Positions 37,645 to 53,761 of a stretch of DNA of 64,000 nt are shown here, piece by piece (position 1 is the first letter of the stretch; every line of letters begins with the position of its first letter). The DNA comes from Sedimentisphaeraceae bacterium JB056. Its GTDB lineage: Bacteria; Planctomycetota; Phycisphaerae; Sedimentisphaerales; Sedimentisphaeraceae. Under the pieces are notes generated by a model. That model searched no databases. It was given only the letters and a program-made list of their open reading frames with translations, and was not told the DNA's origin. Made by a program: the position numbers and the translations under genes. The stretch is from assembly GCA_044440125.1 (NCBI GenBank), contig JBITAJ010000012.1, forward strand, positions 96,001 through 160,000, read 5' to 3'.

Positions 37645-38805
37645 TTATTTTCCAAATGGTGAGAGTTCTCGCAGCCTTGTAATAATCGGCGGCATCTCCT
37701 TTATCACTTTGTCTACTTCTGCCTCTGTTGTGTACATGCTTAGGCTGAATCTGATTGAGCCGTGCGCTGCCGTGAACGGTACGCCCATTGCCCTGAGCAC
37801 ATGGCTTGGCTCAAGCGAGCCGCTGGTGCATGCGCTGCCGCTGCTTGCGCAGATTCCGAAGCGATCGAGCATGAGCAGGATTGCTTCACCTTCGATAAAC
37901 TCAAAGCTGATATTGGCTGTGTTGGGCAGGCGGTTGTCAGGGTCGCCGTTGAGCATTGCATTCGGGCAACTGGTCATGAGGGCTTGCTGAAGCTTGTCGC
38001 GAAGTGCCTTGACCTTGGTGTTTTCCAGTTCAATGTGCTGCTTTGCCAGTTCGCACGCTTTGCCAAGTCCGATGATGGCGGGGGCGTTCTCAGTGCCGGC
38101 GCGTCGTCCGCCTTCCTGATGTCCACCGGTCATGTACGGATGAAGCATTGTGCCTTTTCGAATATAAAGTACGCCGATTCCTTTTGGAGCGTGAAGTTTG
38201 TGGCCGGATATACTGAGAAGGTCAATATTGCTGCCCTCAAGGCTTATTGGAATTTTGCCCACAGCCTGCACGGCATCGGTATGGAAAGTGGCTCCATTTT
38301 CCTTTGACAGTCTGGCAACCTCATCGATTGGAAAGATTGTTCCCGTTTCGTTGTTGGCCCACATCATCGTTACAAGTGCTGTCTCTTCATCGATGGCGTC
38401 TTTGAACTCGTCCATATCAAGACGACCGTTTTCATCAACACCTATTTCTACGACTTGGTATCCGTGGGGAGCCATTGCCCTGCACGTAGTAAGTACTGCC
38501 GGGTGTTCAACTCGTGTGGTTATCAGTTTGCGTTTAGCGGGGTTGGCCGATAATGTGCCTTTGATGGCCCAGTTGTCGCTTTCGGTGCCGCCGCTTGTGA
38601 AGAAAATCTCCGAAGGGTCGCAGTTAAGCAGTGCTGCTACTTTTTCACGCGCATTGCGAAGCTTGGTGCTTACCTGCCCGCCGAAATTGTGCATGCTTGA
38701 GGCGTTGCCGTAAAATTCGCCGAAGTACGGCATCATTTCTTCTATAACTTCATCGGCAACCCTTGTAGTTGCATTATTGTCGAGATAAATCGTGTCCATT
38801 GGCAT
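37645..38805 (-). CDS. nifS: Cysteine desulfurase NifS/IscS
   Basis: YLDNNATT, SGGTESDN, SGHKLH, SSGSACTS; adjacent to nifU. Confidence 0.95.
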   Translation of the reverse strand: MPMDTIYLDNNATTRVADEVIEEMMPYFGEFYGNASSMHNFGGQVSTKLRNAREKVAALLNCDPSEIFFTSGGTESDNWAIKGTLSANPAKRKLITTRVEHPAVLTTCRAMAPHGYQVVEIGVDENGRLDMDEFKDAIDEETALVTMMWANNETGTIFPIDEVARLSKENGATFHTDAVQAVGKIPISLEGSNIDLLSISGHKLHAPKGIGVLYIRKGTMLHPYMTGGHQEGGRRAGTENAPAIIGLGKACELAKQHIELENTKVKALRDKLQQALMTSCPNAMLNGDPDNRLPNTANISFEFIEGEAILLMLDRFGICASSGSACTSGSLEPSHVLRAMGVPFTAAHGSIRFSLSMYTTEAEVDKVIKEMPPIITRLRELSPFGK

Positions 38806-38840
38806 TTCTCTCTTTCTTTATGCCGCTTTTGCGATATAAA

Positions 38841-39689
38841 TTATTTCTCCTCGGTTACAGTGATCTTGTCACTTACGTATTCCCTGAGCTTTGCCTGGAC
38901 GACATCTCTGAGTGTAAGTTCTGCCATCTTGCAGTTGGCACACATCCCGCGGAATGCAACCACTACCTCGTCACCGATTATATCTATGAGATCGATGTCG
39001 CCGCCGTCGGCCTTAAGTGCCGGACGAACCTGCTCATCGATAACTTCCTGTATGAGCTGTATTTTCTGTATATTGGTGAGTTTTGCCGGACGTTTTACAA
39101 CCGGTTTGTGCTCAACCTTGGCTTTTTCGCCCTGAACCTGCTCGATTATTTTTTCAATTTCATGGAAACATCCGCCGCAGCCGCCGCCGGCCTTGCAGTA
39201 GTTGGTTACTTCCTCTACTGTTGTCAGGTCGTTTTCACGTACAACGGTTTCGATTTCCTTGTCTGTGAGGCCAAAGCACTTGCAAACAACTTCGCCTTCA
39301 AGCTTATGTACGGTTGTAGAACCTGTGCGGTAATTCTCAATCGCGGCTTCGAGTGCCTCTTTACCCATTACTGAGCAGTGCATTTTCTGGTCCGGCAGGC
39401 CGCCAAGGAAATCCGCGATGTCCTTATTATTTACTTTTTCAGCTTCTTCAAGAGTCATTCCCTTGATCATTTCAGTCAGTGCGGAGCTTGATGCGATGGC
39501 TGAGGCACATCCGAATGTCTGGAATTTGACATCTTCGATACGTTTGTCGGCATCAAGTTTGAATGTCAGTTTGAGTGCGTCGCCGCAAGCCAGCGACCCA
39601 ACTTCCCCGACACCGTCAGGGTCTTTAACTTCGCCAACATTTCGAGGGTTGATGAAGTGATCTTTAACTTTCTCTGTATAATCCCACAT
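38841..39689 (-). CDS. nifU: Fe-S cluster scaffold NifU (IscU + [2Fe-2S] + Nfu domains)
   Basis: ACGD, FGCASAIAS, MHCS, CxC...GGCGGC, DGGD...CxxC. Confidence 0.95.
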   Translation of the reverse strand: MWDYTEKVKDHFINPRNVGEVKDPDGVGEVGSLACGDALKLTFKLDADKRIEDVKFQTFGCASAIASSSALTEMIKGMTLEEAEKVNNKDIADFLGGLPDQKMHCSVMGKEALEAAIENYRTGSTTVHKLEGEVVCKCFGLTDKEIETVVRENDLTTVEEVTNYCKAGGGCGGCFHEIEKIIEQVQGEKAKVEHKPVVKRPAKLTNIQKIQLIQEVIDEQVRPALKADGGDIDLIDIIGDEVVVAFRGMCANCKMAELTLRDVVQAKLREYVSDKITVTEEK

Positions 39690-39845
39690 AAAATTCCTCG
39701 CTTTCAATTAAGCGGTTATTTCAAAAGTATTTAACTCGCCAATAAGGCTACTACAAATTACTACTCACATTATAAGGATTTTGTTTGCCGGTAAAAGGCT
39801 AAAATCTACATCAGTTGTGTTGAGATCGTACCGAAAAGAAAATAC

Positions 39846-39882
39846 TTGACATTTTTTTATGATGTTGTTAGTATTTACTTAC
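39846..39882 (+). promoter_or_regulatory. Sigma70 promoter overlapped by putative TetR operator 1
   Basis: TTGACA (39846) -17 bp- TAGTAT; imperfect palindrome GTTAGTATTTACTTAC at 39867-39882. Confidence 0.7.
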
Positions 39883-39903
39883 AGTTTATTTGTGAGGATA
39901 ATT

Positions 39904-40482
39904 ATGGGTAATACCAAAGAACAAAAACGTGAAAATTTACTTCCGCTGCTTTCGGCAAAATTTGCAGAGGTTGGATTCAGGCGGGCAACAACCGCACAAT
40001 TAGCAAAATCATGCGGTGTTCAGGAGACAATTCTGTATAGGCTCTGGCCGGGCAAAAAAGAAATGTTTGTAGACTCAATAGATTATATAACAGAGAACTT
40101 GATATCTGTCTGGCAAAATGAGGCAGGTAAGTATCAATCACTGGCAGAATCACTGAAAAACCTGCTTAATTATGAATCAGAGCACTTTGGAGAGCTTGGA
40201 AATTACATAATAATCTTCTCCGGACTCAATGACGCTGACGATCCTGATATAAAAGGAGCACTGAGCAGGATGTATTTCAGGATACATTCTTTTCTTGTAG
40301 AACTTATCACTAAATACAGGGTTGCGGCGGGTAAGAGTGATAATATTGATGTCGCAATGCAGGTCTGGTCGCTTATCGGTCTTGGCACAATGATAACCAT
40401 TACAAAACGTCTTGGGCTGCTTAGTGACGCTGACAGACAGCGGCTTATGAATCAGATGGGCGGCTTTATGCTTGGTCTTTAA
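39904..40482 (+). CDS. TetR/AcrR family transcriptional regulator
   Basis: F...GF...TT..LA...GV....LY...PGKKEM HTH. Confidence 0.9.
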   Translation: MGNTKEQKRENLLPLLSAKFAEVGFRRATTAQLAKSCGVQETILYRLWPGKKEMFVDSIDYITENLISVWQNEAGKYQSLAESLKNLLNYESEHFGELGNYIIIFSGLNDADDPDIKGALSRMYFRIHSFLVELITKYRVAAGKSDNIDVAMQVWSLIGLGTMITITKRLGLLSDADRQRLMNQMGGFMLGL

Positions 40483-40498
40483 GTTAGTATATACTAAC
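40483..40498. promoter_or_regulatory. Putative TetR operator 2
   Basis: Perfect palindrome GTTAGTATATACTAAC directly upstream of the UbiA gene. Confidence 0.75.
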
Positions 40499-40533
40499 AA
40501 TATGTAGCGTTAGGTTTATTGAGGAATTGAGAT

Positions 40534-41499
40534 ATGGTTAAGTTTATCAAAGCGTATATAAAATCAATGAGACTCTATTATGCCTTCGTAACCGGTATAT
40601 CGGGATGGGTTGGGCTTTCTTTCTATAAGTTTCTTTATCCAGAGGATTTAACAGTTGCAAGGACTCTGCTGATACTTGGGCTTTTGTTTTTAAGTTGGGG
40701 GATAAACCAGATCGTCAATGATTATCTGGGGCTTAAGGAAGACAGGATAAACGCTCCAAATCGCCCAATGGTTACCGGTGAACTTAAACCACTGCCGGCA
40801 ATGATAGTTACGTGTATTTTGCTGCTTTGTATGATGGTGATATCGTGGATGCTTAATCCATGGTCGCTTATTCCTGCCTTAGCTGGTATTCTGCTCAATG
40901 TGGTTTATGAGTATTCCAAGGCATGGGGACTTACCGCCAATATTGTATTTGGCGTCATGATTTCAATGTGTACTGCATACGGATTTCTTGCCGGTGGCAA
41001 AATGCCAGATCCTTTGTTTACTACCAATCGAATATCAGGGTTAGTATTAATAGCTATAATTAATGGACTTATGACGTATTATACGTATTTCAAAGACCAT
41101 TATGGCGACAAAATGGCGGGCAAGAAGACTTTTATTGTCCGGTATGGGGTGAATGTTGGGCGGTATGTAGGTATCTTTGGTGCGTTTGTCTCCGCGATAG
41201 CGTTGTTGTTCTTCATAACTATAAACTGGCTGCCTGTGGAGACCATTCTTTATAAGGAAACGTTCGTTTTTTGCTGTATAGTGACGTTTTTTCTGCAATG
41301 CCGTACCGCACAGCTTTATTTTTCCTATCCAGAAGGTGAGCGGGCATATTTCAGTCTTGTTACAAACATAAGGGCATGCGTTGCCGGTCAAACCGCTCTT
41401 ATCGCAATATTCAACCAGACTCTCGCCCTTTATCTACTTGTCGCAAGTTATATTCTTATCGGTGTGTTTTTTGAACAGTATAAGGATGCCAAATCATGA
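40534..41499 (+). CDS. UbiA-family prenyltransferase
   Basis: NDY....EDRINAPNRP and KD..GD...GKKT Asp-rich motifs; multiple TMs. Confidence 0.9.
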   Translation: MVKFIKAYIKSMRLYYAFVTGISGWVGLSFYKFLYPEDLTVARTLLILGLLFLSWGINQIVNDYLGLKEDRINAPNRPMVTGELKPLPAMIVTCILLLCMMVISWMLNPWSLIPALAGILLNVVYEYSKAWGLTANIVFGVMISMCTAYGFLAGGKMPDPLFTTNRISGLVLIAIINGLMTYYTYFKDHYGDKMAGKKTFIVRYGVNVGRYVGIFGAFVSAIALLFFITINWLPVETILYKETFVFCCIVTFFLQCRTAQLYFSYPEGERAYFSLVTNIRACVAGQTALIAIFNQTLALYLLVASYILIGVFFEQYKDAKS

Positions 41500-42764
41500 G
41501 ATACGTAACCGGTATATCAAAACTTCTGCTTTACATACGGATTGCCGTGGATGTTGCGATTCGATATATGTTCAGGATGAATCCTGTTCAATATGTGGTA
41601 TTTCTCCGCAGGGCATCAATATTGCTTTGCTGTTTCTGGCACAACAAAACGGTTAAGATGGCTAATGGTTATAAGCTCCAGCTTTATCTGCCGGCATATC
41701 CTTCAAAGGCGTTTTTCTATACGATAGATTCAAAATTGCTCCGCAAAAATCCAGGACCTGCGACAGTGGTTTACTCAATGACTAAGGCATGCAATTATAA
41801 ATGTCCGCATTGTTATCAAAGGTGTGATCAGGGAATTGATATGAGTGAGCAGGTGCTTGCCGAGACAGCGAGAAAAATTCATGAAGCTGGTGTTTCAATG
41901 TTTGATATTGAAGGGGGTGAGCCGTTTTTGAGATTTGAGAGGCTCAAAAAGATTTTTACTGTTCTTGATGAAGAAAGTGAGATATGGGTAAATACTCACG
42001 GCGGAGATGTGGCGGCGGCTCAGCTTAAGGAACTAAAGAGCATGGGGCTTTTAGGATTGATGGTTTCAATACATTCACCTCAGGAAAATCTACATGATGA
42101 ATTTACCGGCATTCCGGGTTCGTTCAAAAATGCTTGCCGGACGATAAAGATTGCCAGAGAGCTTGGACTTGCGGTAACTATTAACAGTGTGCTTTCCGCA
42201 GAGCAAATCGAGAGCGGCTTGCTTGATGATTTGATGGAGCTTGCTAAAAGTTTGGATTGCGATTTTGTTCAGTTGATTCATCCCAAGCCTTCTGGGTTGT
42301 GGCTATCGTGCGAAAAGCAGATACATCAAAGCGGTGAAGTTGTAAAAGCGGCGAGAGAAAAACACAAGCAATATAATTCACATAGCTTTAAAGATTATCC
42401 GGTTTTGATGGCGCAGGTTTTTGAAGAGGATGCTGATTGTCTGGGGTGTACTGCCGGAGGTGTCGACAGATTTTATGTTAATGCTGCCGGTGAAGTTCAG
42501 CCTTGTGAATTTTTGAATATATCTTTTGGGAATGTCAATGAGGAGAGTTTTGAAAAAATATTCGACAGGATGCGAAGTTGTTTTTCTGTGCCGTGCAGTC
42601 AGTGGCTTTGTTGTAGTAAGTCGCAGGAGATCGCTGCGATGATTGAAAAGTATCAGCCGGGTTCTACTCCGCTCAAGTGGCAATATACAAAAGAGCTTGT
42701 GAAAGATTGGAACAGAGGAGAGCCGACAAAACTTTACGGGAGATTGGGAGTGTATCAAAAATGA
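41496..42764 (+). CDS. Radical SAM protein with SPASM/twitch domain
   Basis: CNYKCPHC, GGEP, C..G...FYVN..G.VQPC. Confidence 0.93.
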   Translation: MRYVTGISKLLLYIRIAVDVAIRYMFRMNPVQYVVFLRRASILLCCFWHNKTVKMANGYKLQLYLPAYPSKAFFYTIDSKLLRKNPGPATVVYSMTKACNYKCPHCYQRCDQGIDMSEQVLAETARKIHEAGVSMFDIEGGEPFLRFERLKKIFTVLDEESEIWVNTHGGDVAAAQLKELKSMGLLGLMVSIHSPQENLHDEFTGIPGSFKNACRTIKIARELGLAVTINSVLSAEQIESGLLDDLMELAKSLDCDFVQLIHPKPSGLWLSCEKQIHQSGEVVKAAREKHKQYNSHSFKDYPVLMAQVFEEDADCLGCTAGGVDRFYVNAAGEVQPCEFLNISFGNVNEESFEKIFDRMRSCFSVPCSQWLCCSKSQEIAAMIEKYQPGSTPLKWQYTKELVKDWNRGEPTKLYGRLGVYQK

Positions 42765-43660
42765 TTCTTGTGATGTGTCCAAAAGCAAGATCTGGAAAAG
42801 GCAAAAAACTTTGGAGCAGCTGGCTCAAGATTTTTGATTCAGCAAACGCTGAATACAAAACGGTTGAAACTGAATACAGCGGTCATGCTTTTGAAATTGC
42901 CAGAGAGGCAGACGATACAGTAGTTGCCGCAGGCGGCGATGGCACAATCAATGAAGTGATCAACGGGGTGATGAAATCTTCCCGCGAAAAAGAGATGGGG
43001 ATTCTTTATTGCGGCACGAGCCCTGATTTTTGCCGTTTCCATAAAATACCAATACAGCCAAAGCAGGCCGCCGAAGCGTTGCTGAAAAAGAAAGAACGTT
43101 TGATTGATGTTGCAGAGATAGAATATACAAAAAACGGATTGAAAGAAAATGCTTTTTTCGGTTGCAGCTGCAACATTGGTATGGGAGCGATGGTTGCGGA
43201 ATTTGCTAATAAGTATCGCAAGTTTTTAGGTGATACCTGCGGGACGCTTTGGGGTGTGTTGCTTGCAGTGATGAAAAACAAAATGGTTGATGTTGAACTT
43301 ACCATTGATAATGAAAAAAAGAAATTGCCGCGATGCAATCATATTGTTATTTTGAAAAATCCGTTTATTGCTTCAGGTTTGAAATTGAATGTTGACATAA
43401 AACCTGATGATGGGCTTGGTGTTGTCATTGCGATAAATGATAAAAATAAATTACAGTTGCTCTCTATGCTACCTGGATTTTATAATGGTAATATCATAAA
43501 CGATAAAACAGTTTTGGTTCGTAAGTTTAAAAGTATTGATGTAAAGCCTGTGAACGGGATGATGGATGTAGAGTTTGACGGTGATCCTAAAGGGATGCTT
43601 CCTGTTAGAGTTGAGATTGTCAGCAACGCAATGAAATTAATAGGTGTAGAAGATGCGTGA
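42761..43660 (+). CDS. Diacylglycerol/sphingosine kinase family lipid kinase
   Basis: P.ARSG, AAGGDGTINEV, GT..DF, EFDGD; ATG at 42761 overlaps the upstream stop. Confidence 0.88.
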   Translation: MILVMCPKARSGKGKKLWSSWLKIFDSANAEYKTVETEYSGHAFEIAREADDTVVAAGGDGTINEVINGVMKSSREKEMGILYCGTSPDFCRFHKIPIQPKQAAEALLKKKERLIDVAEIEYTKNGLKENAFFGCSCNIGMGAMVAEFANKYRKFLGDTCGTLWGVLLAVMKNKMVDVELTIDNEKKKLPRCNHIVILKNPFIASGLKLNVDIKPDDGLGVVIAINDKNKLQLLSMLPGFYNGNIINDKTVLVRKFKSIDVKPVNGMMDVEFDGDPKGMLPVRVEIVSNAMKLIGVEDA

Positions 43661-44606
43661 AGAAAATTTTATTGAAGATGTGATCAGCCGTTTTGAAAGA
43701 AGCAGTCAGCAGAAAAATAAACCGTTTACCTGCGATGCCGAGATTGTTGAAATCTCAGGAAAGTTCTGGGCTGTTACGGTTGATGAGTTTTCGCCGCAGG
43801 AAGATTTGTTTTTTGATACTGATGCGTATCTGCTTGGACAGAATCTCGCAACCGCGACTTTAAGTGATTTGTTTGCGTGCGGAGCTAAACCGCAATTCTT
43901 TCTGCATTCTGTTGTTGCCGGTGAAAAAATGGAGTCAGCTTTTTTTGATGGTTTAAATGATGTTCTTGAGCAGTGCGGGTGTTTCCTGCTTGGCGGTGAT
44001 ACCGGCGGTGGAGAATATTTCAGATACACCGCAATTGCGATGGGGCAAATAGAGAACGAAAAAATTATCAGTAGAGTGATGCCTTGCGATGAACAATTGC
44101 TTTGGATAACAGGCAGTGTTGGTGATGCGAATTTATCAGCCTTTTCTCAAAAATCAATGCCGCAGTTTGAATTGCGAATTGAAGAGTCTGAATTTATTGC
44201 GGCAAATGCGGCAAGTTGTATTGATACGAGCGGCGGTTTGATTGATGCGTTGTGGATGTTGAAAAAAGTTAATCCTGATATGAGATTTGAGATAGATGCG
44301 GATATGATTCCATTTGATATCAAGGTGAAGGAATTCTGCAAGGCAGCGGGATTGCCCCCGATGGCTTTTGCTTTTGGAGGTGCGGGAGAGTATGAGTTGT
44401 TGTTTACAACGCCTTACTCTGTGAAGCCGCCGTTTGCCGCAACGTGCATTGGTCGTTGCTGCAGCGATCAGGAAAGCGGTATATATATAAAGACTGATGA
44501 TAAGTCGAGAAGGATAAAAGATGCTCCGCCGTGCGGTCGTGAAATTAAAGATAAGGATGCGTATGTGAAAAAAATATTGGAGCAGGTTAATGACATCATC
44601 TGTTGA
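43653..44606 (+). CDS. ThiL-like (PurM/AIR synthase fold) monophosphate kinase
   Basis: DA, SDL.A.GA.P, LLGGDT, TG.VG, IDTSGGL, GEYELLFT. Confidence 0.8.
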   Translation: MREENFIEDVISRFERSSQQKNKPFTCDAEIVEISGKFWAVTVDEFSPQEDLFFDTDAYLLGQNLATATLSDLFACGAKPQFFLHSVVAGEKMESAFFDGLNDVLEQCGCFLLGGDTGGGEYFRYTAIAMGQIENEKIISRVMPCDEQLLWITGSVGDANLSAFSQKSMPQFELRIEESEFIAANAASCIDTSGGLIDALWMLKKVNPDMRFEIDADMIPFDIKVKEFCKAAGLPPMAFAFGGAGEYELLFTTPYSVKPPFAATCIGRCCSDQESGIYIKTDDKSRRIKDAPPCGREIKDKDAYVKKILEQVNDIIC

Positions 44607-45810
44607 ACATAAAATCTTTTCTCCTCTTAAATTGAAGAATATAACTTTGCCAAATCGTTTTGTCCGTTCGGCAACTTATGAAGGTATGTCGGATTCCAAT
44701 GGTGTTGTGAATAAAAAGATTGGAGAGCTTTACGGCAAGCTTGCTCAAGGAGGAGTTGGGACAATAATAACCGGTTTCTGTTTTGTTTCAAAACAGGGAC
44801 GCGCTATGCAGCTATCGCAGGCAGGTCTCTATAATCAGCAGACAATGAATGCCTGGAAACAAGCATTAGAAATTTTTAGAGAATTCAGGACAGATACAAA
44901 AATATTCGCGCAGCTTGCCCATACGGGAAGGCAGACACTTTCTTCTGTTACAGGATGTGCAGTTGTTGGAGCTGGAAATAAAAAGAGCTTATACTTTCGT
45001 GAGAAGACACGAAAGCTTGATGCTGATGAAGTTCAATCCATTGTTAAAGAATTTGCCGACTCAGCGTTAATGGCAAAGCTGGCAGGTTTCGATGGTGTGC
45101 AACTTCATGGTGCGCACGGCTATCTGATTCATCAGTTTCTTTCACCCGAAACAAACAGGCGAAATGATAAATGGAAAGACGGGAGTTTGTTTCTGCTAAA
45201 TATCATAGAAAAAATAAAAAGCAAATGTGGTGACGATTTTCCTGTGCTTGTGAAATTAAGCTGGGCAGACGACAGGCAACTGAAGATTGATGATACCATA
45301 AAGACGGTAAGAAAAATCGAACAGCTTGTTGACGCCGTTGAGATAAGTTATGGCACAATGGATTTTGCGATGAATATTTTCAGGGGTTCGTGTCCGGTTG
45401 AAGTTGCTTTTAAAATTAATCCGATATTCAAAAATATGAGCTGGTTTTCAAAAGGTCTCTGGAAATATTTTATTGCTCCGCAATATTTGAAAAGATTAAA
45501 ACCTTTTACAGAAAATTACAATCTTGCTGCCGCGATGAAGATAAAAGAAAATACAAATGCTGAAGTTTTTTCTGTTGGCGGTTTTAGAAAATTAAGTTCG
45601 ATGAAGAATGCGATAGACAGAGGCATTTCTGCTGTCTCTCTTTGCAGGCCTTTTATATGTGAACATGATTTGATTCATAAATTCAGGAATGGTTCTGCCG
45701 ATAAATCAAAATGTATTAATTGCAATCTTTGTGCAGTACATTGCGATGGAGATTTATCATCGTCGACTTTACGATTGAATACAAAATGTTATTATCAAAA
45801 TAAAGATTAA
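44590..45810 (+). CDS. NADH:flavin oxidoreductase (Old Yellow Enzyme family)
   Basis: NRFVRSAT, QLAHTGR, GFDGVQLHGAHGYLI.QFLSP..N.R.D, C-terminal CxxCNxC. Confidence 0.92.
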   Translation: MTSSVEHKIFSPLKLKNITLPNRFVRSATYEGMSDSNGVVNKKIGELYGKLAQGGVGTIITGFCFVSKQGRAMQLSQAGLYNQQTMNAWKQALEIFREFRTDTKIFAQLAHTGRQTLSSVTGCAVVGAGNKKSLYFREKTRKLDADEVQSIVKEFADSALMAKLAGFDGVQLHGAHGYLIHQFLSPETNRRNDKWKDGSLFLLNIIEKIKSKCGDDFPVLVKLSWADDRQLKIDDTIKTVRKIEQLVDAVEISYGTMDFAMNIFRGSCPVEVAFKINPIFKNMSWFSKGLWKYFIAPQYLKRLKPFTENYNLAAAMKIKENTNAEVFSVGGFRKLSSMKNAIDRGISAVSLCRPFICEHDLIHKFRNGSADKSKCINCNLCAVHCDGDLSSSTLRLNTKCYYQNKD

Positions 45811-45830
45811 TAAATTGAGGTAATGGGGAC

Positions 45831-47081
45831 ATGACTGTAGTGGTGAAAAAAAAGTTTGAGGATTTCGTGAATACGAAAAATCAGGATGTTTTCAGTAAGG
45901 CGTTCGAACTCAATGCTTATCTTCAGGAGAATCCTGAGAAGATGTTGTCGGGGCTTGGTCTTAAAATGCAGGGTCCGGCAGCGCCCAATACTGTTCTGCT
46001 TGACGATGCTGAGCATGAAGTGATAATGCTTGGCTCGAATTCATATCTGAATCTTACAACTCATCCCGATGTAGTGGCAGCATCAAAAGCTGCTTGCGAA
46101 AAATATGGTTATGGTATGGGTGCAGTGTCGCTTTATGCCGGAATCACAGAACTGCACCGTGAGCTTGAAATCGCAATCGCAGACTTTTACAGTACCGAAG
46201 ATGCGATTGTCTTTCCTTCCGGTTATGGAACTAATATAGGGGTTATCTCGGCGATATGTAATCACGATGATATTATAATCAATGATTCGGCAAATCACTC
46301 TTCAATTTTTGATGGCTCGGTTCTCTCCGGTGCAACGCTGAAAATTTATCTGCACAGGGATATGAAAAAACTTGAGCATGTATTGTCTCGAATCGATCGG
46401 AAAGGTCGCGGCGTACTGATTATAACCGATGGCGTTTTTTCAATGCATGGTGATCTTGCACCGCTTGATGAAATTGTTTCTCTTGCGGAAAAATATGATG
46501 CCAGAGTTATGGTTGATGATGCGCATGGAATTGGGATTGTCGGCCCCGGAGGTCGCGGCACTGCGGCGGCTTTTGGCGTGCGTGATAAGATTGATTTGAA
46601 TATTGGAATGCTTAGCAAAGCACCGGGAGGCCTTGGCGGTTTCTGTGCGGCTAAAAAAGAAATCGTCGATTATCTGCGCCTGTACGCAAGGTCATATTTT
46701 TTCTCCACAGCTCTTCCTGCTCCGATAGTTGCCGGTCTCTTGGAAGTGTTCAAGTTGCTGAAGGCAAATGCTGCCGGCCGTAATCAGTTGTGGGATAATA
46801 TTAATTATCTTAAAAGTAGACTGATTGCCGCCGGTTTCAATACCGGTGAGAGTGCATCGGGAATAATACCGATTATTGTAGGTGATGAGGTTGCCTTGGC
46901 AGGATTCCATCGCGACCTTATAGATAATGGTGTGTATACAAATATTGTAAGTTATCCTGCTCTTCGGCGTAAAGAGTCAAGAGTCAGGTTGTGTGTGATG
47001 AGTTCGCTCACAACTCAGCAGATGAATAAGGCTTTGAGTGTAATAATGCAGGCGGGGAAAAAATGGCAGATAATAAAATAG
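45831..47081 (+). CDS. PLP-dependent alpha-oxoamine synthase (serine palmitoyltransferase/AONS/KBL family)
   Basis: SNSYL, FPSGY..N, NHSSI, DGVFSMHGD, DDAHG, LSKA. Confidence 0.9.
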   Translation: MTVVVKKKFEDFVNTKNQDVFSKAFELNAYLQENPEKMLSGLGLKMQGPAAPNTVLLDDAEHEVIMLGSNSYLNLTTHPDVVAASKAACEKYGYGMGAVSLYAGITELHRELEIAIADFYSTEDAIVFPSGYGTNIGVISAICNHDDIIINDSANHSSIFDGSVLSGATLKIYLHRDMKKLEHVLSRIDRKGRGVLIITDGVFSMHGDLAPLDEIVSLAEKYDARVMVDDAHGIGIVGPGGRGTAAAFGVRDKIDLNIGMLSKAPGGLGGFCAAKKEIVDYLRLYARSYFFSTALPAPIVAGLLEVFKLLKANAAGRNQLWDNINYLKSRLIAAGFNTGESASGIIPIIVGDEVALAGFHRDLIDNGVYTNIVSYPALRRKESRVRLCVMSSLTTQQMNKALSVIMQAGKKWQIIK

Positions 47082-48058
47082 CTCTCATAACCGGAGCCGC
47101 AGGGTTTATCGGTTTGCATACTGTTAAGAGGTTTGTATCTGAAGGCTGGTTTGTTTATGCCGTGATTCATCGCAGGCAAAGCAGCAGGCTTGATGAACTC
47201 CAGCATCAGGGAAAGGTTTTGATCTTCAAATCAGATGTTACGGATTTTGAAGAGTTGAAACAGCTTTTCGAAAAATTGCCGGAGAAAATATCAGCGGTCG
47301 TTCATTGTGCCGGACGAGCAAGCGATATTGGACGGGCTAAAGAATTCAGGACAACTAATTTTGATTCGGTTCGTTATCTTGGCGAGCTTGTCAGTAGTTA
47401 CGATATACCGAGATTTGTTTTCGTATCAACAACCGATGTCTATGGTATGAGAGATTTTCACGGTGAGGATGAGTCGCAGCTTGATTACGCAGCCAGGCCT
47501 ATCAATAATTATCCTAAATACAAAATCTTGGCTGAAAAGTGTATAAAGGATAACATGGCGCCAGAGAAATGGTGCATATTGCGACCGGCGGCTGTTTGGG
47601 GATGCGATGATCCTACGATGACCAAACGTCTGCGCGATTTTTTTGCTTCATCACCCTTTATTATTCATTTCGGTAAATGGAAGGGACAAAACAGATGGCC
47701 GGCGGTTCATGTAGACTCCGTAGCAGATGCCTGTTATCTGGGAGCAGTTGCCGATGAGGCGGCAGGTGAGGAGATAAATGTCATTGATACGGAAAAAATC
47801 AGCGTTGATCAATTCTATAGGCGAATTATTAAGCAGTATTTCCCTGACAAGAAGTTTTACAAAATCTGCTTGCCTTTCTGGGTTGGCTGGTGCGCTGGTG
47901 CAGTTGTGAGCGGTATATCAAATTTATTCAATTTATCTACTCCGATAGCTGATCCATCCCTATATGCCGCATATTCTGTGAGCAGTAATCTTGATTTCAG
48001 CGGTCAAAAACTCTTGAGAATTAAAAAACGTTACGAAAATCGCAGAAATGCGCATTAA
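47063..48058 (+). CDS. Extended SDR (NAD-dependent epimerase/3-beta-HSD-like)
   Basis: TGAAGFIG, HCAG, VST..VY, YPKYK (YxxxK), LRP..VWG. Confidence 0.88.
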   Translation: MADNKIALITGAAGFIGLHTVKRFVSEGWFVYAVIHRRQSSRLDELQHQGKVLIFKSDVTDFEELKQLFEKLPEKISAVVHCAGRASDIGRAKEFRTTNFDSVRYLGELVSSYDIPRFVFVSTTDVYGMRDFHGEDESQLDYAARPINNYPKYKILAEKCIKDNMAPEKWCILRPAAVWGCDDPTMTKRLRDFFASSPFIIHFGKWKGQNRWPAVHVDSVADACYLGAVADEAAGEEINVIDTEKISVDQFYRRIIKQYFPDKKFYKICLPFWVGWCAGAVVSGISNLFNLSTPIADPSLYAAYSVSSNLDFSGQKLLRIKKRYENRRNAH

Positions 48059-48059
48059 A

Positions 48060-48092
48060 AAGGCTTTGAAAGCATTATGCTCTCAAAGCCTT
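48060..48092. terminator. Hairpin between convergent SDR and ferredoxin genes
   Basis: AAGGCTTTGA...TCAAAGCCTT stem; A-run on the left gives a U-tail on the minus strand. Confidence 0.65.
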
Positions 48093-48115
48093 GATGTTTT
48101 AAACTTATCTCTGGA

Positions 48116-48286
48116 CTATTCCATAGAGATAGCTTCAACTGGACACTCATCAACGCAAGCGCCACAGTCTACACATGTATCGGCATCGATAACTGCTTTG
48201 TCGTCCATAGAAATTGCTTCGCAAGGACAAGCGTCTACGCAAGCACCGCAACCTGTGCATGTTTCTGCATCTACTACTGCTGCCAT
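48116..48286 (-). CDS. 2x[4Fe-4S] clostridial-type ferredoxin (56 aa)
   Basis: Manual translation MAAVVDAETCTGCGACVDACPCEAISMDDKAVIDADTCVDCGACVDECPVEAISME; below the ORF-track cutoff. Confidence 0.95.
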   Translation of the reverse strand: MAAVVDAETCTGCGACVDACPCEAISMDDKAVIDADTCVDCGACVDECPVEAISME

Positions 48287-48936
48287 AATAAATTTCCTTT
48301 CAAAAAAAGAATCATTCCATAAGGTTACATACTTTAAAATAAAAATTACTAACGTGATATATATAAAGAAATAGGCGATTATTCCAGTAAAAAATTGAGA
48401 ATTTAGTAAAAAAATGCACAGTTTTTGCCGGGGGGCTTAAGAGGTCTCGAAAGTTGAAAGCCATGACTAACAATTGTGTTTGCTTGTAACATTTATAAGT
48501 GGTTTACATAGCTCATTTAATAAAAATCCCAGATTTACATGAAACTGAATTTTAAGGGTTTAAGGTGCTTCATTTTTTTGATTTAAATTGTTACTTGAGA
48601 AATCATAAAATTGCAATGGATTATTGTGGTATTCATTCATTCGGAGTGGTCTGATATTATTTGCTTAATGTAAGCCGTACGCTGAAAAATGTACGAATAT
48701 GATATTTTGATTTTTTTGAAGGAATTGAGAACTTTTGAAATATTGGATTGAAATAAAGTTTTTTGTAAATTCTTAAATCATTCTTTAGGCGTTGTTTAAG
48801 GCTTGTTTTGTTAGGTTTTTGTTCGGGAAATATAAAATAAATCTTGAATCGATTCAGCTGTGGTGATAAAATTTGTTAGATAAATATATAACTTTTGGAT
48901 TTGTTAATTATTTATCTAACAAGGAAAGGAGCGATA

Positions 48937-49380
48937 ATGTCCCGATTTAATGAGAATACGTGTTGTGGGGTCCAGAAGCATGCAGTTGTGGCTTGTCGTG
49001 ATGATATTGACCTTATCAGAATGCGTGCGGAGAGTGTTTTCAGCGGCAAACGGCTTGCAATGATCCGTCTTTATTTTGATCGCGGAGCGACATGCCGTGA
49101 AATTGCACAGATAGCTGGCAAGAGTGAGGGGCAGATATGCCGGATAATCAATTCACTTGTGAGGAGATTGAAAGATAGTGACTGCCTGTTTTTTCTGCGG
49201 CATCGGCAGCTTTTTTCAGTTTCCGAGCAGAAAATACTCTACTCAACACTTTTTGATGCTTTGAGTTATAGAAAAGCAGCAGCCAGGCACAGGTGCAGCA
49301 TTTACAAAGTGAGGAAAGCTGTTGAGAAGCTTGGTCGTCTTAAGAAAATAGATATATCAGGAGGATTTAATGGAGATTGA
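48937..49380 (+). CDS. Sigma-70 region 4-like HTH protein
   Basis: LYF..G....EIA...G.S...I.R; second HTH-like segment; AAGGAG RBS. Confidence 0.6.
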   Translation: MSRFNENTCCGVQKHAVVACRDDIDLIRMRAESVFSGKRLAMIRLYFDRGATCREIAQIAGKSEGQICRIINSLVRRLKDSDCLFFLRHRQLFSVSEQKILYSTLFDALSYRKAAARHRCSIYKVRKAVEKLGRLKKIDISGGFNGD

Positions 49381-50029
49381 CATACAAAAGCGAGTGATGC
49401 CGCGGATAAAACTTACACCGAATATTCGGTCCATGATGCGAATTTTTTCACTGACAACTGACGATTTGAAAAGACCGCTGATTGATCTGAGCGTGAGTTT
49501 TGATCTGAAACCGGGTGAGATTTACTTTATAACCGGTCCCAGTGGATGTGGTAAAAGCTTGTTATTAAGGGAGATGAGGCGGGCGATACCATCAGATGAA
49601 AGAATAGATATTAATGATTTGCCGTTATCTGCTGTTACTACCATGATCGATTGCTTCAAAAGTGCACCTCTTGGTTTGCGGGCTTTGTCGAGGATGGGGC
49701 TTTCGGATGTATCTGCTATGCTGCTTCCGCCGGCGATTCTCAGCGAAGGGCAGAAATATCGCTACAGACTTGCAAAGGCGATAAGCTCCGGCAAACAGAT
49801 TATTATCGCTGATGAATTTTGCTCTACACTTGACAAGGTTACGGCTGGTTTACTGTGTCTCAAGCTTCGCCGCATTGCCGACAGGACTGGTAAAATATTC
49901 ATTCTTGCCGGTCATAGCCGTGGGCTGTTGCCTGATTTGATGCCCGATTGTGTCTTGCAGGTGCATTCCAACAGTGAGATTATCAAGCTTAAGCGTATTG
50001 ACCAGACAGATATGTATGAGAGGGCGTGA
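49370..50029 (+). CDS. Stand-alone ABC-type ATPase (COG2401-like)
   Basis: GPSGCGKS, LSEGQKYR, IIIADEF, H-loop; no permease nearby. Confidence 0.8.
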   Translation: MEIDIQKRVMPRIKLTPNIRSMMRIFSLTTDDLKRPLIDLSVSFDLKPGEIYFITGPSGCGKSLLLREMRRAIPSDERIDINDLPLSAVTTMIDCFKSAPLGLRALSRMGLSDVSAMLLPPAILSEGQKYRYRLAKAISSGKQIIIADEFCSTLDKVTAGLLCLKLRRIADRTGKIFILAGHSRGLLPDLMPDCVLQVHSNSEIIKLKRIDQTDMYERA

Positions 50030-50733
50030 TGTGCGGTATTGGGAATATTCTAAAAGAAGCTTATATTGAGCAGGTAACGAAGGCCGACTATCAACCATTT
50101 GCTTGTTTTCATTATCGAAAAGGGCGTTTGCCGGTTGTGGACAAGGTGTTTGCGTTGGTGTTACCGGAATTTGGACGGATTGCCATTGTGGTCTACTCCT
50201 TTCCGCCTTGCCACTTACTTGCCAGACGTATGGCTTTGGGTGATTGGTTGCCGCGATTAGATCGCTCATCAATGATGCGGTTTATAAATGCCAATATTCG
50301 CTCAATATCGAGGGTTGTGGTTGTGCCTGAGTTTCGGGGGATTTCGGCGGCATCTTTGCTTATTAGCAACAGTTTGGATAGGCTATGTGTGCCGCTTATT
50401 GAATCGGTAGCGGCTATGGGCGAGTTTAACAGCTTTTTTGAGAAGGCGGGGTTTGTCAAGTCTACTGCGCCTGTCAGTGACAGGTGCCGGAATATGGCTA
50501 ACATATTGCGAGAAAATGGTTTAGGTGGTGATATGCTCTTTGATGCGGATTTGGCATTGAGGTATATCAATACGCTGAGCGATAAGCAAAAACCGCGTAT
50601 ATGGCATGAGATAGACCGCTTTATTGGAGCTTATGGCAGGAAAAGATTGCTTTCCGATAAGCGGCAACGGGTGAATATTGTTTTGTCGAGACTTAACGGT
50701 TCTGGGACATATTTCTACAAATTTTGCAATTAA
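50026..50733 (+). CDS. GNAT-fold acetyltransferase (COG2401/Mom-like)
   Basis: FHY, ISRVVV.PEFRG (acetyl-CoA motif A), E..A.M...N.FFEKAGF. Confidence 0.75.
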   Translation: MMCGIGNILKEAYIEQVTKADYQPFACFHYRKGRLPVVDKVFALVLPEFGRIAIVVYSFPPCHLLARRMALGDWLPRLDRSSMMRFINANIRSISRVVVVPEFRGISAASLLISNSLDRLCVPLIESVAAMGEFNSFFEKAGFVKSTAPVSDRCRNMANILRENGLGGDMLFDADLALRYINTLSDKQKPRIWHEIDRFIGAYGRKRLLSDKRQRVNIVLSRLNGSGTYFYKFCN

Positions 50734-50842
50734 TTTAAAACTATCAGAGCTTCCCATATGAGGAAGCATATAAAACGCATAGAGTTTGCTGCCGGCTTAC
50801 TGACGTGCACGGCTCTGAAAGCTTATTAAAGAGGGAGAGAAG

Positions 50843-51238
50843 ATGGCTAAGATAAGTAAAAAGCAGAGGGATTTTCTGGACTGTATAATTGACAGCCGGA
50901 TAGAGGTTGAGGCGGCGATGGAGCAGCTTGGCATCAGCAGCGACACGATTTGTCGTTGGTTTTCAATGGAAGCGTTTACTCAGGAAATCACGCGCCGCAT
51001 TGATGTGATAACCAGACGTGCTGATATGATTATTTCGCAAAACAGGCTTCTTGCCGCCAAACGGCTTGTGAAGCTGACGAATTGTGAGAAGGAGGAGACT
51101 GCGAGAAAGGCGTGTCTTGATATACTGGAGCTTACCGCGGCGGGAAAGGTAGAGGAGAATCAGGGCACAATGCCGCAGATATCACAGCAGACCGCCGCAA
51201 AACTGCTGGAAATACTCGCAAACGAAAAGCAAATGTAA
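50843..51238 (+). CDS. HTH protein, putative terminase small subunit-like
   Basis: N-terminal HTH (..KKQ..FL...A...LGIS..TI.RW...F) and A..L..L.....E..R.A..DIL; upstream of TerL. Confidence 0.55.
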   Translation: MAKISKKQRDFLDCIIDSRIEVEAAMEQLGISSDTICRWFSMEAFTQEITRRIDVITRRADMIISQNRLLAAKRLVKLTNCEKEETARKACLDILELTAAGKVEENQGTMPQISQQTAAKLLEILANEKQM

Positions 51239-51353
51239 AGAAGAAAGCTTTATTTTGTCTGTGGTGGTTTCATTTTTTCATAAAAACAGTAAAATATCTA
51301 CAGTTTAGTTGGCATTAAAGATATTTATAACGATAAGTTTGAAAGGTTAGAGA

Positions 51354-51782
51354 ATGAAGATTGCTATAGCATCAGATCACGCGGGTTTTGATTACAAAGA
51401 AGCGGTTAAGGCATTTTTGCTCGAAAAAGGCTACGAAGTAGAAGACTTCGGCACATATTCTAAGGATTCCTGCGACTATCCTGATTTTATTTTTCCAGCG
51501 GCACGCGCGGTTGCTGAAGGCAAGTGCGAGAGGGGTATTGTATTCGGCGGCAGCGGCAACGGCGAAGCTATCGCGGCTAACAAGATCAAGGGTGTACGCT
51601 GCGGGCTTGCATGGGACTTGCGTTCAGCACGTCTTTGCCGTGAGCACAATGATGCGAATGTACTGTCAATGGGGCAGAGAATGTTAGCGGTAGAAGAAAT
51701 GCTCGAAATTACTGAGCTCTGGCTCAACACGGATTACGAAGGCGGCCGCCATCAGAAGAGAATTGATAAGCTCGATATCTGA
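51354..51782 (+). CDS. rpiB: Ribose-5-phosphate isomerase B
   Basis: IASDHAG, DYPD, GGSGNG..IAANK, HNDANVL, GGRH..R. Confidence 0.95.
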   Translation: MKIAIASDHAGFDYKEAVKAFLLEKGYEVEDFGTYSKDSCDYPDFIFPAARAVAEGKCERGIVFGGSGNGEAIAANKIKGVRCGLAWDLRSARLCREHNDANVLSMGQRMLAVEEMLEITELWLNTDYEGGRHQKRIDKLDI

Positions 51783-51812
51783 CAGTTATCAGTAAACAGT
51801 TATCAATTATCA
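51783..51812. repeat. Left heptamer array of four-helix-bundle element
   Basis: CAGTTAT CAGTAAA CAGTTAT CAATTAT CA. Confidence 0.8.
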
Positions 51813-51856
51813 TAGGCTCTCGCCGTTTGCAGAGATAGAAATTATAGGAGGAGAAA

Positions 51857-52255
51857 TTGAATAACGGAATTGACAGCAAAGTTTATAAGTTGGCGTGTAA
51901 GTTTTCGATAAAAATAGTTAAGCAATGTCGAATCTTACGTGACGAAAAAGAATTTGTTCTTTCAACTCAACTGCTTAAGAGTGGCACTTCAATAGGCGCA
52001 AATATTGCAGAAGCCAACGGTGCTATATCTATGGCTGATTTTTCGGCTAAGATATCAATTTCGTATAAGGAAGCTTTGGAAACAAAGTACTGGCTCGATC
52101 TTTTGAAGGATACTGATACAATAGGTCTTGAATGTTATGATGAGCTATTTCGATCCGTTGATGAAATTGCGAAAATTTTGTATTCCATATTGAAGACGAC
52201 AAGAAATATAAATCCTGAGAAAAAATCTGATATTGCAGATGGCGATAGCCGATAA
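51857..52255 (+). CDS. Four-helix-bundle protein (23S rRNA IVP/Avd-like family)
   Basis: QLLKSGTSIGANIAEA...S..DF..K..IS.KEA.ET.YWL.LL. Confidence 0.92.
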   Translation: MNNGIDSKVYKLACKFSIKIVKQCRILRDEKEFVLSTQLLKSGTSIGANIAEANGAISMADFSAKISISYKEALETKYWLDLLKDTDTIGLECYDELFRSVDEIAKILYSILKTTRNINPEKKSDIADGDSR

Positions 52256-52279
52256 CTGTTAACTGATAATTGATAACTG
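52244..52279. repeat. Right heptamer array, inverted relative to the left array
   Basis: GATAGCC GATAACT GTTAACT GATAATT GATAACT G. Confidence 0.8.
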
Positions 52280-52297
52280 AATTTGGAGGAGAAAATC

Positions 52298-53761
52298 ATG
52301 TCTATTTCTGCGGCCAGTTTGCGCGCGGCGGGTGGGGTTTATCGTGCGCTTCGTAAAATCAAACCTCAAACAAAAGAGCAGTTGCTCAATTATGTAAAGG
52401 TATTTTTAGGTGTCAGCGTGCCTGATCAGGTAGTTTGTTCGGGGCATAGCTCACCGGCGGATTATCTTTGGCATGCTTTCAACTGTGATGATGATGCGTC
52501 CGTTTCAAACGGAGATTGTGTTGTGTGGGCAAACCGCGGCGGCGGCAAAACTATGATGGCGGCGGTTGCCACTCTTCTTGATTGTCTATTCAAAGATGCT
52601 GCGCAGGTTCGTATACTTGCAGGCTCTTTCGATCAGGCTTCCAGGATGTATGAGTATCTTGTGAAGTTTGTCTCTGATGGTTTTGAGGATAAGCTTGCCG
52701 AGCCGATTAAAAAAAGCGGTATGTCTTTTGTCAACGGCTCGAAAGTTGAAGTGCTCACGCAATCTGCAAAGAGTGTTCGCGGGTGTCATATTCATAAGCT
52801 GAGATGTGATGAAGTGGAGATGTTTGATACGGAAGTTTTCGAGGCGGCGCAATTCATAACACAATCGACTGACGGCAAAAAAGCCGCGATGGAAATTGCT
52901 TCAACAATGCACAGGCCGTATGGTTTGATGCAGGATGTTGTTGCCGGTGCTAAAGAAAATTCTGTGCCGATATTCAAATGGTGTCTGTGGGAAGTTATTG
53001 AAAAATGCACGCAGCAGAGTTGTTCGCGATGTCCTTTGAATGATGATTGTCGCGGCCGTGCAAAACATGCCGATGGCTACTATAGGATTGATGATGCAAT
53101 AAGTCAGATGCGGCGTTCAAGTCGACAGAGCTGGCAGGCGGAAGTTTTGTGTGAGCGTCCGCTTAATGATAAGCTTGTGTTCTCTGATTTCGAAAGAACG
53201 GTTCATGTTAAGCCGGTAGAGTTTGATATTCGTTTGCCGCTTTATCGCACGATCGATTTTGGTTTTGTCAATCCGTTTGTCTGTCTATGGATACAGGTTG
53301 ATGGAAGCGGGGTGGTGCGTGTGTTGCGGGAGTATCAGCAGAGCCGCATGACAATACTTGCCAACACCGAAAAAATAATTTCGATAACGCCGTGCGATGA
53401 AGCTTGCGTTGCCGCGACATTTTGCGATCCCGCAGGCAATCAGCATAGCGATATTACAGGCACAAACTGTGTGCAGGAAATGCGCCGTGCGGGAGTTCGT
53501 GTGAGAAGCTGTAAGAGCGGCATACTTGAAGGTATTGAAAAAATACGCAAAGCTCTTAAAGACGGCTTCGGCAATTCACGAATTGTCATAGACCCCAAAT
53601 GCACAAATCTTATAAAGTCGCTTGAGACGTATCACTATCCCGACAACTCTCCATCAGAGCTGCCGGTAAAAGACGGCATAAGCGATCATCACATAGATGC
53701 TCTGCGATACTTCTTTGTTAATTATGAAAAAAATACAAAGGTCATTCAGCGACGGTATTGA
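52298..53761 (+). CDS. Phage terminase large subunit-like protein
   Basis: Walker A ANRGGGKT, RG plus Walker B LRCDEVE, ST motif, nuclease IDFG..NP, CDPAG, DHHIDALRY. Confidence 0.88.
   Translation: MSISAASLRAAGGVYRALRKIKPQTKEQLLNYVKVFLGVSVPDQVVCSGHSSPADYLWHAFNCDDDASVSNGDCVVWANRGGGKTMMAAVATLLDCLFKDAAQVRILAGSFDQASRMYEYLVKFVSDGFEDKLAEPIKKSGMSFVNGSKVEVLTQSAKSVRGCHIHKLRCDEVEMFDTEVFEAAQFITQSTDGKKAAMEIASTMHRPYGLMQDVVAGAKENSVPIFKWCLWEVIEKCTQQSCSRCPLNDDCRGRAKHADGYYRIDDAISQMRRSSRQSWQAEVLCERPLNDKLVFSDFERTVHVKPVEFDIRLPLYRTIDFGFVNPFVCLWIQVDGSGVVRVLREYQQSRMTILANTEKIISITPCDEACVAATFCDPAGNQHSDITGTNCVQEMRRAGVRVRSCKSGILEGIEKIRKALKDGFGNSRIVIDPKCTNLIKSLETYHYPDNSPSELPVKDGISDHHIDALRYFFVNYEKNTKVIQRRY

Follow-up and report, generated by a model that had tools for sequence, protein, structure and literature searches.

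What lipid, if any, would an operon make that joins an alpha-oxoamine synthase (AOS) and an extended SDR to two kinases, a UbiA-family membrane enzyme, a radical SAM enzyme and an Old Yellow Enzyme (OYE)? Such an operon, tetR followed by seven enzyme genes (eight open reading frames (ORFs), all on the + strand), lies at 39846..48058 of the window, the whole 64,000-nucleotide stretch analysed here (contig C12, 96001-160000, of Sedimentisphaeraceae bacterium JB056; genome 4.54 Mb, 99.8% complete). Hundreds of sphingolipid-like molecules from anoxic (euxinic) waters and sediments, 1-deoxy forms among them, still lack an assignment (PMC11334938; PMC12619533). Few enzymes have been linked to such molecules, and the cassette is a candidate source of an amino-lipid class; the main text of PMC11334938 mentions neither 'UbiA' nor 'prenyl' nor 'radical'. 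The operon is real and conserved and matches no described pathway: our literature search, which did not reach most subscription papers and some supplements, gave no description of the gene set, in agreement with an initial annotation of this DNA that had named no such pathway. We tentatively propose, at somewhat under even chances, that the product of the operon is a nitrogen-containing lipid not described before, formed by way of an amino-alcohol diphosphate, which an altered UbiA enzyme would use as a non-isoprenoid donor. If true, the product would belong to a new class of membrane lipids or lipophilic cofactors, and the UbiA would be the first DGGGPS-like enzyme to transfer a non-isoprenoid alkyl group.

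A conserved operon with two architectures

Pfam family matches gave the gene order tetR, ubiA, radical SAM gene, dagk, thiL-like, oye, aos, sdr. The seven enzyme genes are:

40534..41499, +, UbiA-family membrane enzyme with a DGGGPS-like fold; motifs altered to NDxxGxxED and TYFKDxxGD
41496..42764, +, radical SAM enzyme of its own subfamily; N-terminal helical extension, CxxxCxHC, C-terminal Twitch/SPASM-like part
42761..43660, +, soluble lipid kinase of the DAGK/sphingosine-kinase family; GGDGT intact, DGD in place of DGE
43653..44606, +, ThiL-like (PurM-fold) kinase, a paralogue of true ThiL; 107.6 bits against TIGR01379, cut-off 184
44590..45810, +, OYE; HxxHxY and a C-terminal CxxCxxC-xn-C, probably for a 4Fe-4S cluster; optional in the cassette
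45831..47081, +, AOS of a PigH-related clade, with Val99 as gatekeeper
47063..48058, +, extended SDR, OleD/3-beta-HSD-like; TGxxGxxG and STT...YxxxK

This agrees with the initial annotation, as all ORFs have the positions, strand and families that it had given them. Its claim of nearly complete stop/start overlap is also borne out, with overlaps at five of the six enzyme-gene junctions (-4, -4, -8, -17 and -19 nt); oye and aos are separated by 20 nt, and tetR and ubiA by 51 nt. GC content of the operon genes is 0.38-0.44, compared with 0.416 for the genome. Among the NCBIfam matches listed, no equivalog model scored over its cut-off for an operon protein.

At E<=0.001, a search with the UbiA protein returned 1062 relatives, and identity to the query is 59-99% for the top 120. 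In 185,579 species genomes, 253 stretches were seen to encode a UbiA relative, and the best 80 were analysed; from a metagenome scan with 252 UbiA relatives, the best 80 were kept and loci longer than 5 kb mapped. The best 80 genome loci represent 15 named phyla, together with 18 unnamed records, and judging from organism names the carriers are presumably mostly anaerobes. Full order from ubiA to sdr was seen in 36 of the 80 loci (three with an OYE remnant, one with a shortened OYE), and the same order without OYE in four; a further 17 are collinear as far as the sequence reaches (16 stop at a contig end, and L051 is broken after oye). The remaining loci comprise 21 with a second architecture, in which gene order differs and an acyl carrier protein (ACP) and a KAS are encoded where the contig extends that far, one that ends at UbiA (L048) and one with UbiA alone (L049). 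Metagenome loci show the same two architectures. Gene order is thus kept in dozens of unrelated genomes, beyond chance. The initial annotation's remark that ACP, GNAT, bio and other thi genes are lacking holds at the JB056 locus and fails for the second architecture, which has ACP and KAS.

AOS, SDR, DAGK-type kinase, ThiL-like kinase, UbiA and radical SAM enzyme co-travel in both architectures. Between the two, UbiA, radical SAM enzyme, both kinases and OYE are clearly orthologous, whereas the AOS (32% identity) and SDR (25%) belong to different lineages. As distinct AOS and SDR lineages occupy the same slot, this points to a putative interchangeable module that forms an aminoketone and then reduces it.

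The second architecture occurs in Desulfosporosinus and Cloacimonadota and also in Riflebacteria-type loci, where 12 loci gain an MMPL/RND transporter and 5 a hot-dog dehydratase-like protein. Riflebacteria-type loci (L070:12153-20775, L060, L062, L075, L077, L164) carry either AOS lineage, the MMPL/RND gene, a second type of KAS/ACP and the dehydratase-like protein, which is fused to the AOS in L060. Two apparent fusions within the second architecture, SDR-radical SAM in Cloacimonas (L069:13036-15570) and AOS-DAGK (L218, ~6040-8292), may be real or assembly artefacts. The cassette is patchily spread: 2 of 401 genomes of JB056's own phylum and 20 of 42 Desulfosporosinus genomes carry its UbiA, and 40 close relatives of JB056 gave no AOS orthologue (best match 41%). 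None of 66 candidate stretches was confirmed as viral. With cultured Desulfosporosinus carriers (D. lacus DSM 15449, D. hippei DSM 8344 and D. fructosivorans 63.6F) and non-carriers at hand, the product is testable.

The UbiA enzyme has an altered active site

The active site of the operon's UbiA is non-canonical by its motifs, a point absent from the initial annotation. The predicted structure (pLDDT 89.8) has the UbiA fold, and the nearest solved relative is DGGGPS both by profile (E 5.9e-14) and by Foldseek, with MjDGGGPS (PDB 6m31, TM 0.65/0.73, Z 22.2) tying with ApUbiA (Z 21.7) as structural match. The first motif reads NDxxGxxED in 80/80 genome loci and in 120/120 listed proteins (the pattern matched 119 of them, and P0032 was read by eye), so that Gly replaces the Asp equivalent to MjDGGGPS D66 and AfUbiA D72 and an invariant Glu follows three residues later; these positions were not fixed by our search patterns. 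In the second motif, Tyr replaces D180/D198 and a Lys is added in 120/120 proteins; this Tyr belonged to the genome search pattern, which biases its count among the loci.

In AfUbiA, D72A abolished GPP binding and D198A weakened it 45-fold (PMC4106721), and D66A and D180A strongly reduced MjDGGGPS activity (PMC9385802). As the altered motifs are so highly conserved, they argue for a working enzyme that would use a different substrate rather than a dead one. The new Glu is predicted to lie on the same helix face as the lost Asp and could take over Mg2+. We rejected DGGGP synthase as identity: the fold matches, but the first Asp of both motifs is lost (to Gly and Tyr), and a search of the JB056 genome with the GGGP synthase model PF01884 gave no match, while the control was positive in 7 of 14 genomes. 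An Atlas search returned only clusters without names for the UbiA and radical SAM proteins.

The likeness to DGGGPS by profile and Foldseek would suit a different product, a prenylated sphingoid phosphate. AOS and SDR would make the base, the DAGK-type kinase would phosphorylate it, and UbiA would add an isoprenoid chain to its amine or hydroxyl, replacing ceramide synthase; the ThiL-like kinase would form a diphosphate head group or recycle prenyl phosphate. UbiA enzymes are reported to cluster by acceptor (PMC9385802), and a long-chain base 1-phosphate may be seen to resemble GGGP. On the other hand, the structural tie with ApUbiA weakens the DGGGPS match, a housekeeping prenyl diphosphate as donor would leave the dedicated second kinase without an obvious role, and no prenyl synthase was found among gene families kept in at least four loci.

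The AOS lies outside the SPT group

Whether the base is a sphingoid depends on the AOS, which the initial annotation had called SPT-like. The single-domain, 416-aa protein reached none of the curated SPT models (333, 311 and 272 bits, cut-offs 640, 500 and 670) and stayed below the cut-offs for BioF (332/426) and KBL (373/460). In 72,556 plasmid records, its best annotated matches outside the family were ACP-fused AOS genes within prodigiosin-type clusters (39% identity), and bit scores were 310-318 for these PigH-type proteins, 261 for KBL, 206-242 for SPT and 238 for BioF. AOS and PigH-type proteins have a common N-terminal extension; the name PigH is here an assignment from neighbouring genes (PigD, RedY, PigC-like; L132-L134), not from a tested protein.

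In a 25-row tree the AOS joined the PigH-type proteins (support 97/96) and the SPT group stood apart (98/96). Forcing the AOS into that group was rejected by an approximately unbiased (AU) test (p-AU 0.0234), the group being three SPTs (E. coli BL21, Prevotella, Parabacteroides) and one Priestia AOS, without an alphaproteobacterial SPT, and its exact membership having been chosen after inspection of the tree. A 43-row tree with 23 more relatives kept the AOS and its closer fusions with PigH (95/89), and in both trees BioF and KBL formed separate clades. Those closer relatives, from a search of 1.84 billion representatives, are uncharacterised AOS proteins fused to PilZ, GNAT or FemAB domains, and the link to PigH therefore appears to hold at clade level only. 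The AOS of the second architecture forms a long separate branch of unstable position and is non-PigH.

A gatekeeper position gave a hint of the amino acid used. At the position of ThAOS V79, KBL has Val and SPT has Ser, and the V79T variant is active only with Ala (PMC11906848). The JB056 AOS has Val99; across 57 cluster AOS rows (the unrelated L048 row left out) we counted 45 Val, 12 Thr and no Ser, and PigH has Cys. The evidence thus leans towards Gly or Ala as the predicted substrate.

We therefore rejected an SPT identity (scores below cut-offs, position outside the SPT group, no Ser gatekeeper), and the 'SPT-like' label is not supported, the enzyme falling among PigH-type and PilZ/GNAT/FemAB-fused synthases. 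BioF and KBL identities were rejected from scores and clades, in line with the initial annotation. 'Spt-like' genes in anaerobe genomes thus need not encode SPTs, and the broad 'Spt-like clade B' of PMC11334938 might cover some of the cluster AOS proteins.

For the prenylated sphingoid phosphate, this position outside the SPT group (AU p=0.023) and the missing Ser gatekeeper count against the base that it needs. In its favour, YghO, which we take to be the E. coli bCerS homologue, had no match as a query in the JB056 genome or in any locus (the one ceramide synthase query used), and the Parabacteroides spt adjoins a DAGK gene. On balance we regard this product as unlikely, while still the most serious competitor.

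The PigH clade suggests a second alternative, an alkylpyrrole. Here the AOS would condense a beta-ketoacyl thioester with an amino acid and cyclise the product, and the SDR would finish the pyrrole; the kinases would then yield a pyrrolylmethanol diphosphate (like HMP-PP) for coupling by UbiA, or UbiA would prenylate the ring, and the radical SAM enzyme would cyclise the tail without oxygen. In pyrrole formation PigH and RedN use Ser, and RedL plus RedK use Gly (PMC11188435). The best annotated AOS matches and the clade support speak for this alternative, as does the second architecture, in which KAS, ACP, AOS and reductase parallel RedL/RedK (PMC11188435), and a heteroarylmethyl diphosphate would be expected to require less Mg2+ activation. 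Against it, the PigH link is at clade level with closer, uncharacterised fused relatives, the second-architecture AOS is non-PigH, and the gatekeeper is Cys in PigH versus Val here. Furthermore, no PigC/D/F-like gene was found in any locus, the Riflebacteria dehydratase would strip the beta-oxygen, and the JB056 form has neither KAS nor ACP. An alkylpyrrole is thus improbable in our view.

Three side observations concern the wider AOS family. The PilZ-AOS-GNAT and PilZ-AOS-FemAB fusions (P0124, P0127, P0131, P0152), the closest relatives of the cluster AOS, are possibly c-di-GMP-controlled one-protein synthases of N-acyl amino-lipids. The prodigiosin-type clusters (L132-L134) lie on plasmids of Thioclava spp., Methylocystis iwaonis and Pseudoalteromonas xiamenensis. 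A conjugative Bacteroides plasmid (L135:3980-5940) carries an unclassified AOS and a TetR gene near a MAC/perforin-domain gene.

Two kinases, a radical SAM enzyme and a dispensable OYE

The DAGK-type kinase retains GGDGT, and the catalytic residues of the SDR are conserved. The ThiL-like protein scored 107.6 bits against ThiL, 37 against SelD and 30 against HypE; its acidic ATP/Mg ligands are conserved and its best PDB matches are ThiL. As a true ThiL is encoded on contig C15 (223 bits, over the TIGR01379 cut-off of 184), the ThiL-like kinase would be free for another monophosphate. We rejected a ThiL identity on both grounds, its score below 184 and the ThiL on C15.

These scores also bear on whether housekeeping genes (BioF/KBL, ThiL, DgkB and a quinone prenyltransferase) had merely gathered by chance. 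In support, no oxoamine synthase other than the AOS turned up in the JB056 genome, KBL-type models score highest (373 bits), and a Zn-dependent dehydrogenase lies nearby (33424-34455). Yet all scores are below cut-offs, KBL and BioF form separate clades and the true ThiL is elsewhere; strict synteny across 15 named phyla largely refutes the idea, which we consider barely credible. The dehydrogenase, at 203-207 bits against Tdh cut-offs of 380-458, is not a conserved neighbour, and on score we rejected a KBL-Tdh pair.

The radical SAM model (pLDDT 88) matched only generic radical SAM folds at TM ~0.5 (BlsE, viperin, SkfB). Lipid-modifying SPASM/Twitch enzymes with N-terminal extensions exist (bioRxiv 2023.10.20.563219), and the resemblance goes no further. 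An Mss identity was rejected: motifs differ, and heme-synthesis radical SAM enzymes score at least as well, with 81 bits on the cluster profile for a Desulfosporosinus Mss-motif protein and ~100-106 for AhbD/NirJ2-like proteins. A quick tree left a weak, open fork (75) between cluster and Mss-type proteins, with motif-defined stand-ins in place of tested Mss. Altered UbiA, ThiL-like kinase and radical SAM enzyme are three subfamilies for which we found no characterised member.

A second radical SAM protein of the same wider family (29% identity; L092:8798-11728, contig C18 ~158800-161730) is sister to the cluster clade in a quick tree (support 98). Its gene is convergent with those of a DGGGPS-like UbiA with canonical motifs and a SAM methyltransferase, with a CDP-alcohol transferase-like gene 6 kb off, and the wider family may be tied to UbiA products.

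The OYE (PF00724, E 2.8e-46) carries HxxHxY and a four-Cys motif. It is absent from L006, L011, L017, L039, L218, L220 and L224, a remnant in L007, L018 and L046, and shortened in L019, and is thus lost or reduced in at least 10 loci of both architectures. Five such genomes were searched: one complete chromosome has an OYE orthologue 2 Mb away, one has the remnant alone, one has a 34% partial paralogue, and two metagenome-assembled genomes have none. As the enzyme is repeatedly lost or distant, we assign it a predicted optional tailoring step; its place in the core of long-chain-base synthesis, as initially annotated, is weakened by the intact operons in which it is missing or a remnant. We likewise rejected the dispensable OYE as a general source of an allylic double bond that would activate the UbiA donor.

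A tentative pathway to a UbiA-coupled amino-lipid

From the observed genes, motifs, co-conservation, OYE loss and operator-like sites, we infer substrates, step order and product as follows. The AOS would join a small amino acid, probably Gly or Ala, to a fatty acyl thioester and so yield an alpha-aminoketone; the thioester would be host acyl-ACP or acyl-CoA in JB056 and would come from a dedicated ACP and KAS where the second architecture is present. The SDR would reduce this to a vicinal amino alcohol of the 1-deoxysphingoid type, whose sole hydroxyl adjoins the chain. The DAGK-type kinase would phosphorylate this hydroxyl, and the ThiL-like enzyme would add a second phosphate, like ThiL on thiamine monophosphate. 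Phytol kinase and phytyl-phosphate kinase are a precedent for the route from alcohol over mono- and diphosphate to a UbiA enzyme (PMC7999835). The altered UbiA would take the non-isoprenoid diphosphate as donor, with help from the adjacent amine or from an allylic double bond; the chain could go to the hydroxyl of a lyso-lipid, to another amino-alcohol molecule or to the amine of the same molecule. The radical SAM enzyme would perform an oxygen-free C-H step (desaturation or cross-link), and the OYE would reduce a conjugated double bond as optional tailoring.

Several points weigh against this pathway. UbiA enzymes make poor use of a saturated secondary diphosphate as donor, and the activating double bond would need a source other than the dispensable OYE. 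The closest characterised AOS type, PigH, yields a pyrrole and not an amino alcohol. Wild-type ThAOS, with Val at the gatekeeper position, also accepts Ser (PMC11906848), so serine may serve as substrate. Mutations of the MjDGGGPS motifs impaired acceptor binding (PMC9385802), and the motif change may have to do with the acceptor rather than the donor; the count of the second-motif Tyr in the loci is biased. Support for the pathway comes from sequence and structural models.

As a class, a phosphorylated, UbiA-coupled amino-lipid, the kind of product initially envisaged, is the likeliest on present evidence. More specifically, it is possible, if short of probable, that the UbiA donor is a diphosphate derived from fatty acid and amino acid (amino-alkenyl or pyrrolylmethyl) and that the new radical SAM enzyme cross-links or desaturates anaerobically.

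Probable TetR control and flanking genes

The regulator and the putative control elements of the operon are:

39846..39874, +, sigma-70-like promoter; -35 TTGACA, 17 nt, extended -10; top-scoring site
39867..39882, operator-like imperfect palindrome overlapping the -10 box; two mismatches to the palindrome at 40483
39904..40482, +, TetR-family regulator, likely 192 aa (longest ORF from 39859); PF00440, E 2.7e-08
40483..40498, perfect 16-bp palindrome, second operator-like site, in the tetR/ubiA interval directly 3' of the tetR stop
48060..48092, terminator-like 16-nt inverted repeat in the sdr/ferredoxin interval; arms 94% complementary, function deduced from form

The claim of TetR control is supported by operator-like palindromes flanking tetR, from which TetR would repress the operon. 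Within two mismatches of the 40483 palindrome, the 4.54-Mb genome has no site beyond the two that flank tetR, the palindrome itself included; by chance ~3 such sites would be expected genome-wide, and a second copy less than 700 bp away has a probability of ~0.0005. Related palindromes lie 5' of orthologous tetR genes, two copies in L003 and one in L007. As the region has no overall excess of sigma-70-like sites (27 versus 23.0+/-4.8 in shuffled sequence), the promoter is proposed from its position. The start of the longest tetR ORF (39859) falls within this promoter, and the likely start is therefore ATG 39904, after a GAGGA ribosome site. TetR is no part of the cassette core, being present in 2 of the 80 genome loci (L003, L007); it also precedes the cassette at L199, and MarR-like regulators, assigned by eye, are found at L010, L012, L061 and L068.

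Such ligand-sensing regulators ahead of several loci would fit salvage or detoxification, in which a lipid alcohol or amino-lipid from outside (such as sedimentary phytol or sphingoid bases) induces the operon, is activated by the kinases and is remodelled or attached. The patchy spread among sediment anaerobes and the precedent of plant phytol recycling (PMC7999835) agree with this. Oxoamine synthases, on the contrary, are decarboxylative and effectively one-way, the dedicated ACP and KAS of the second architecture indicate de novo synthesis, and no uptake or beta-oxidation genes are conserved among the locus neighbours. Salvage is accordingly quite improbable.

The operon is flanked by divergent iscS/nifU-like genes on one side and a convergent ferredoxin gene on the other. 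The former, a cysteine desulfurase and a NifU-like Fe-S assembly gene (37645-39707, -), diverge from the operon promoter; convenient as they are for two Fe-S enzymes, they are not kept beside other cassette copies. The 56-aa ferredoxin (48116-48286, -), of 2[4Fe-4S] type, is a possible electron donor for the radical SAM enzyme or OYE, and a 108-aa + strand ORF (48048-48374) is a shadow of its gene. Terminase-like DNA-packaging genes are interspersed with rpiB at 48895-53761.

Comparison with known systems

Bacterial ceramide synthesis (Spt, ACP, CerR, bCerS) shares with the operon an oxoamine synthase, an extended SDR and a DAGK-family kinase, as well as an ACP in the second architecture. In contrast, the operon AOS lies outside the SPT group with a Val/Thr gatekeeper, no YghO/bCerS-like gene was found with that query, the SDR is 27% identical over 195 aa to that of the E. 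coli BL21 spt locus, and UbiA, ThiL-like kinase, radical SAM enzyme and OYE are additions. Prodiginine pyrrole synthesis (PigH/RedN; RedL with RedK) resembles the operon in AOS type and, in the second architecture, in the logic of KS, ACP, AOS and reductase. However, the operon AOS stands alone without a fused ACP and has another gatekeeper, PigC/D/F are missing from the loci, and UbiA, two kinases and a radical SAM enzyme are foreign to pig/red clusters. Phytol recycling (VTE5, VTE6 and a UbiA-family transferase) offers a likeness of logic only, from alcohol over monophosphate and diphosphate to UbiA donor, whereas the operon alcohol is probably pathway-made and non-isoprenoid. VTE5/VTE6 and the operon kinases belong to unrelated kinase families.

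At the level of single enzymes, the operon UbiA keeps the fold of MjDGGGPS (PDB 6m31) and equivalents of N62, D70, Y125, K129, D188 and D192, but is only ~20% identical, with Gly for D66, Tyr for D180 and the invariant Glu69 and Lys187 as new residues. The ThiL-like kinase has the PurM fold, acidic ATP/Mg ligands and best PDB matches of ThiL, and differs in its score below cut-off, its own conserved N- and C-terminal residues and the presence of a true ThiL elsewhere. The radical SAM enzyme resembles Mss in length, N-terminal extension and a C-terminal block of the GCxAGG...N..G.V.PC.F type, and departs from it in block I (CxxxCxHC versus CNxxCxGC) and in VQPC versus VEPC (PMC13159169). By analogy, the logic of the operon would thus be partly that of ceramide synthesis, partly that of prodiginine pyrrole synthesis and partly that of phytol recycling.

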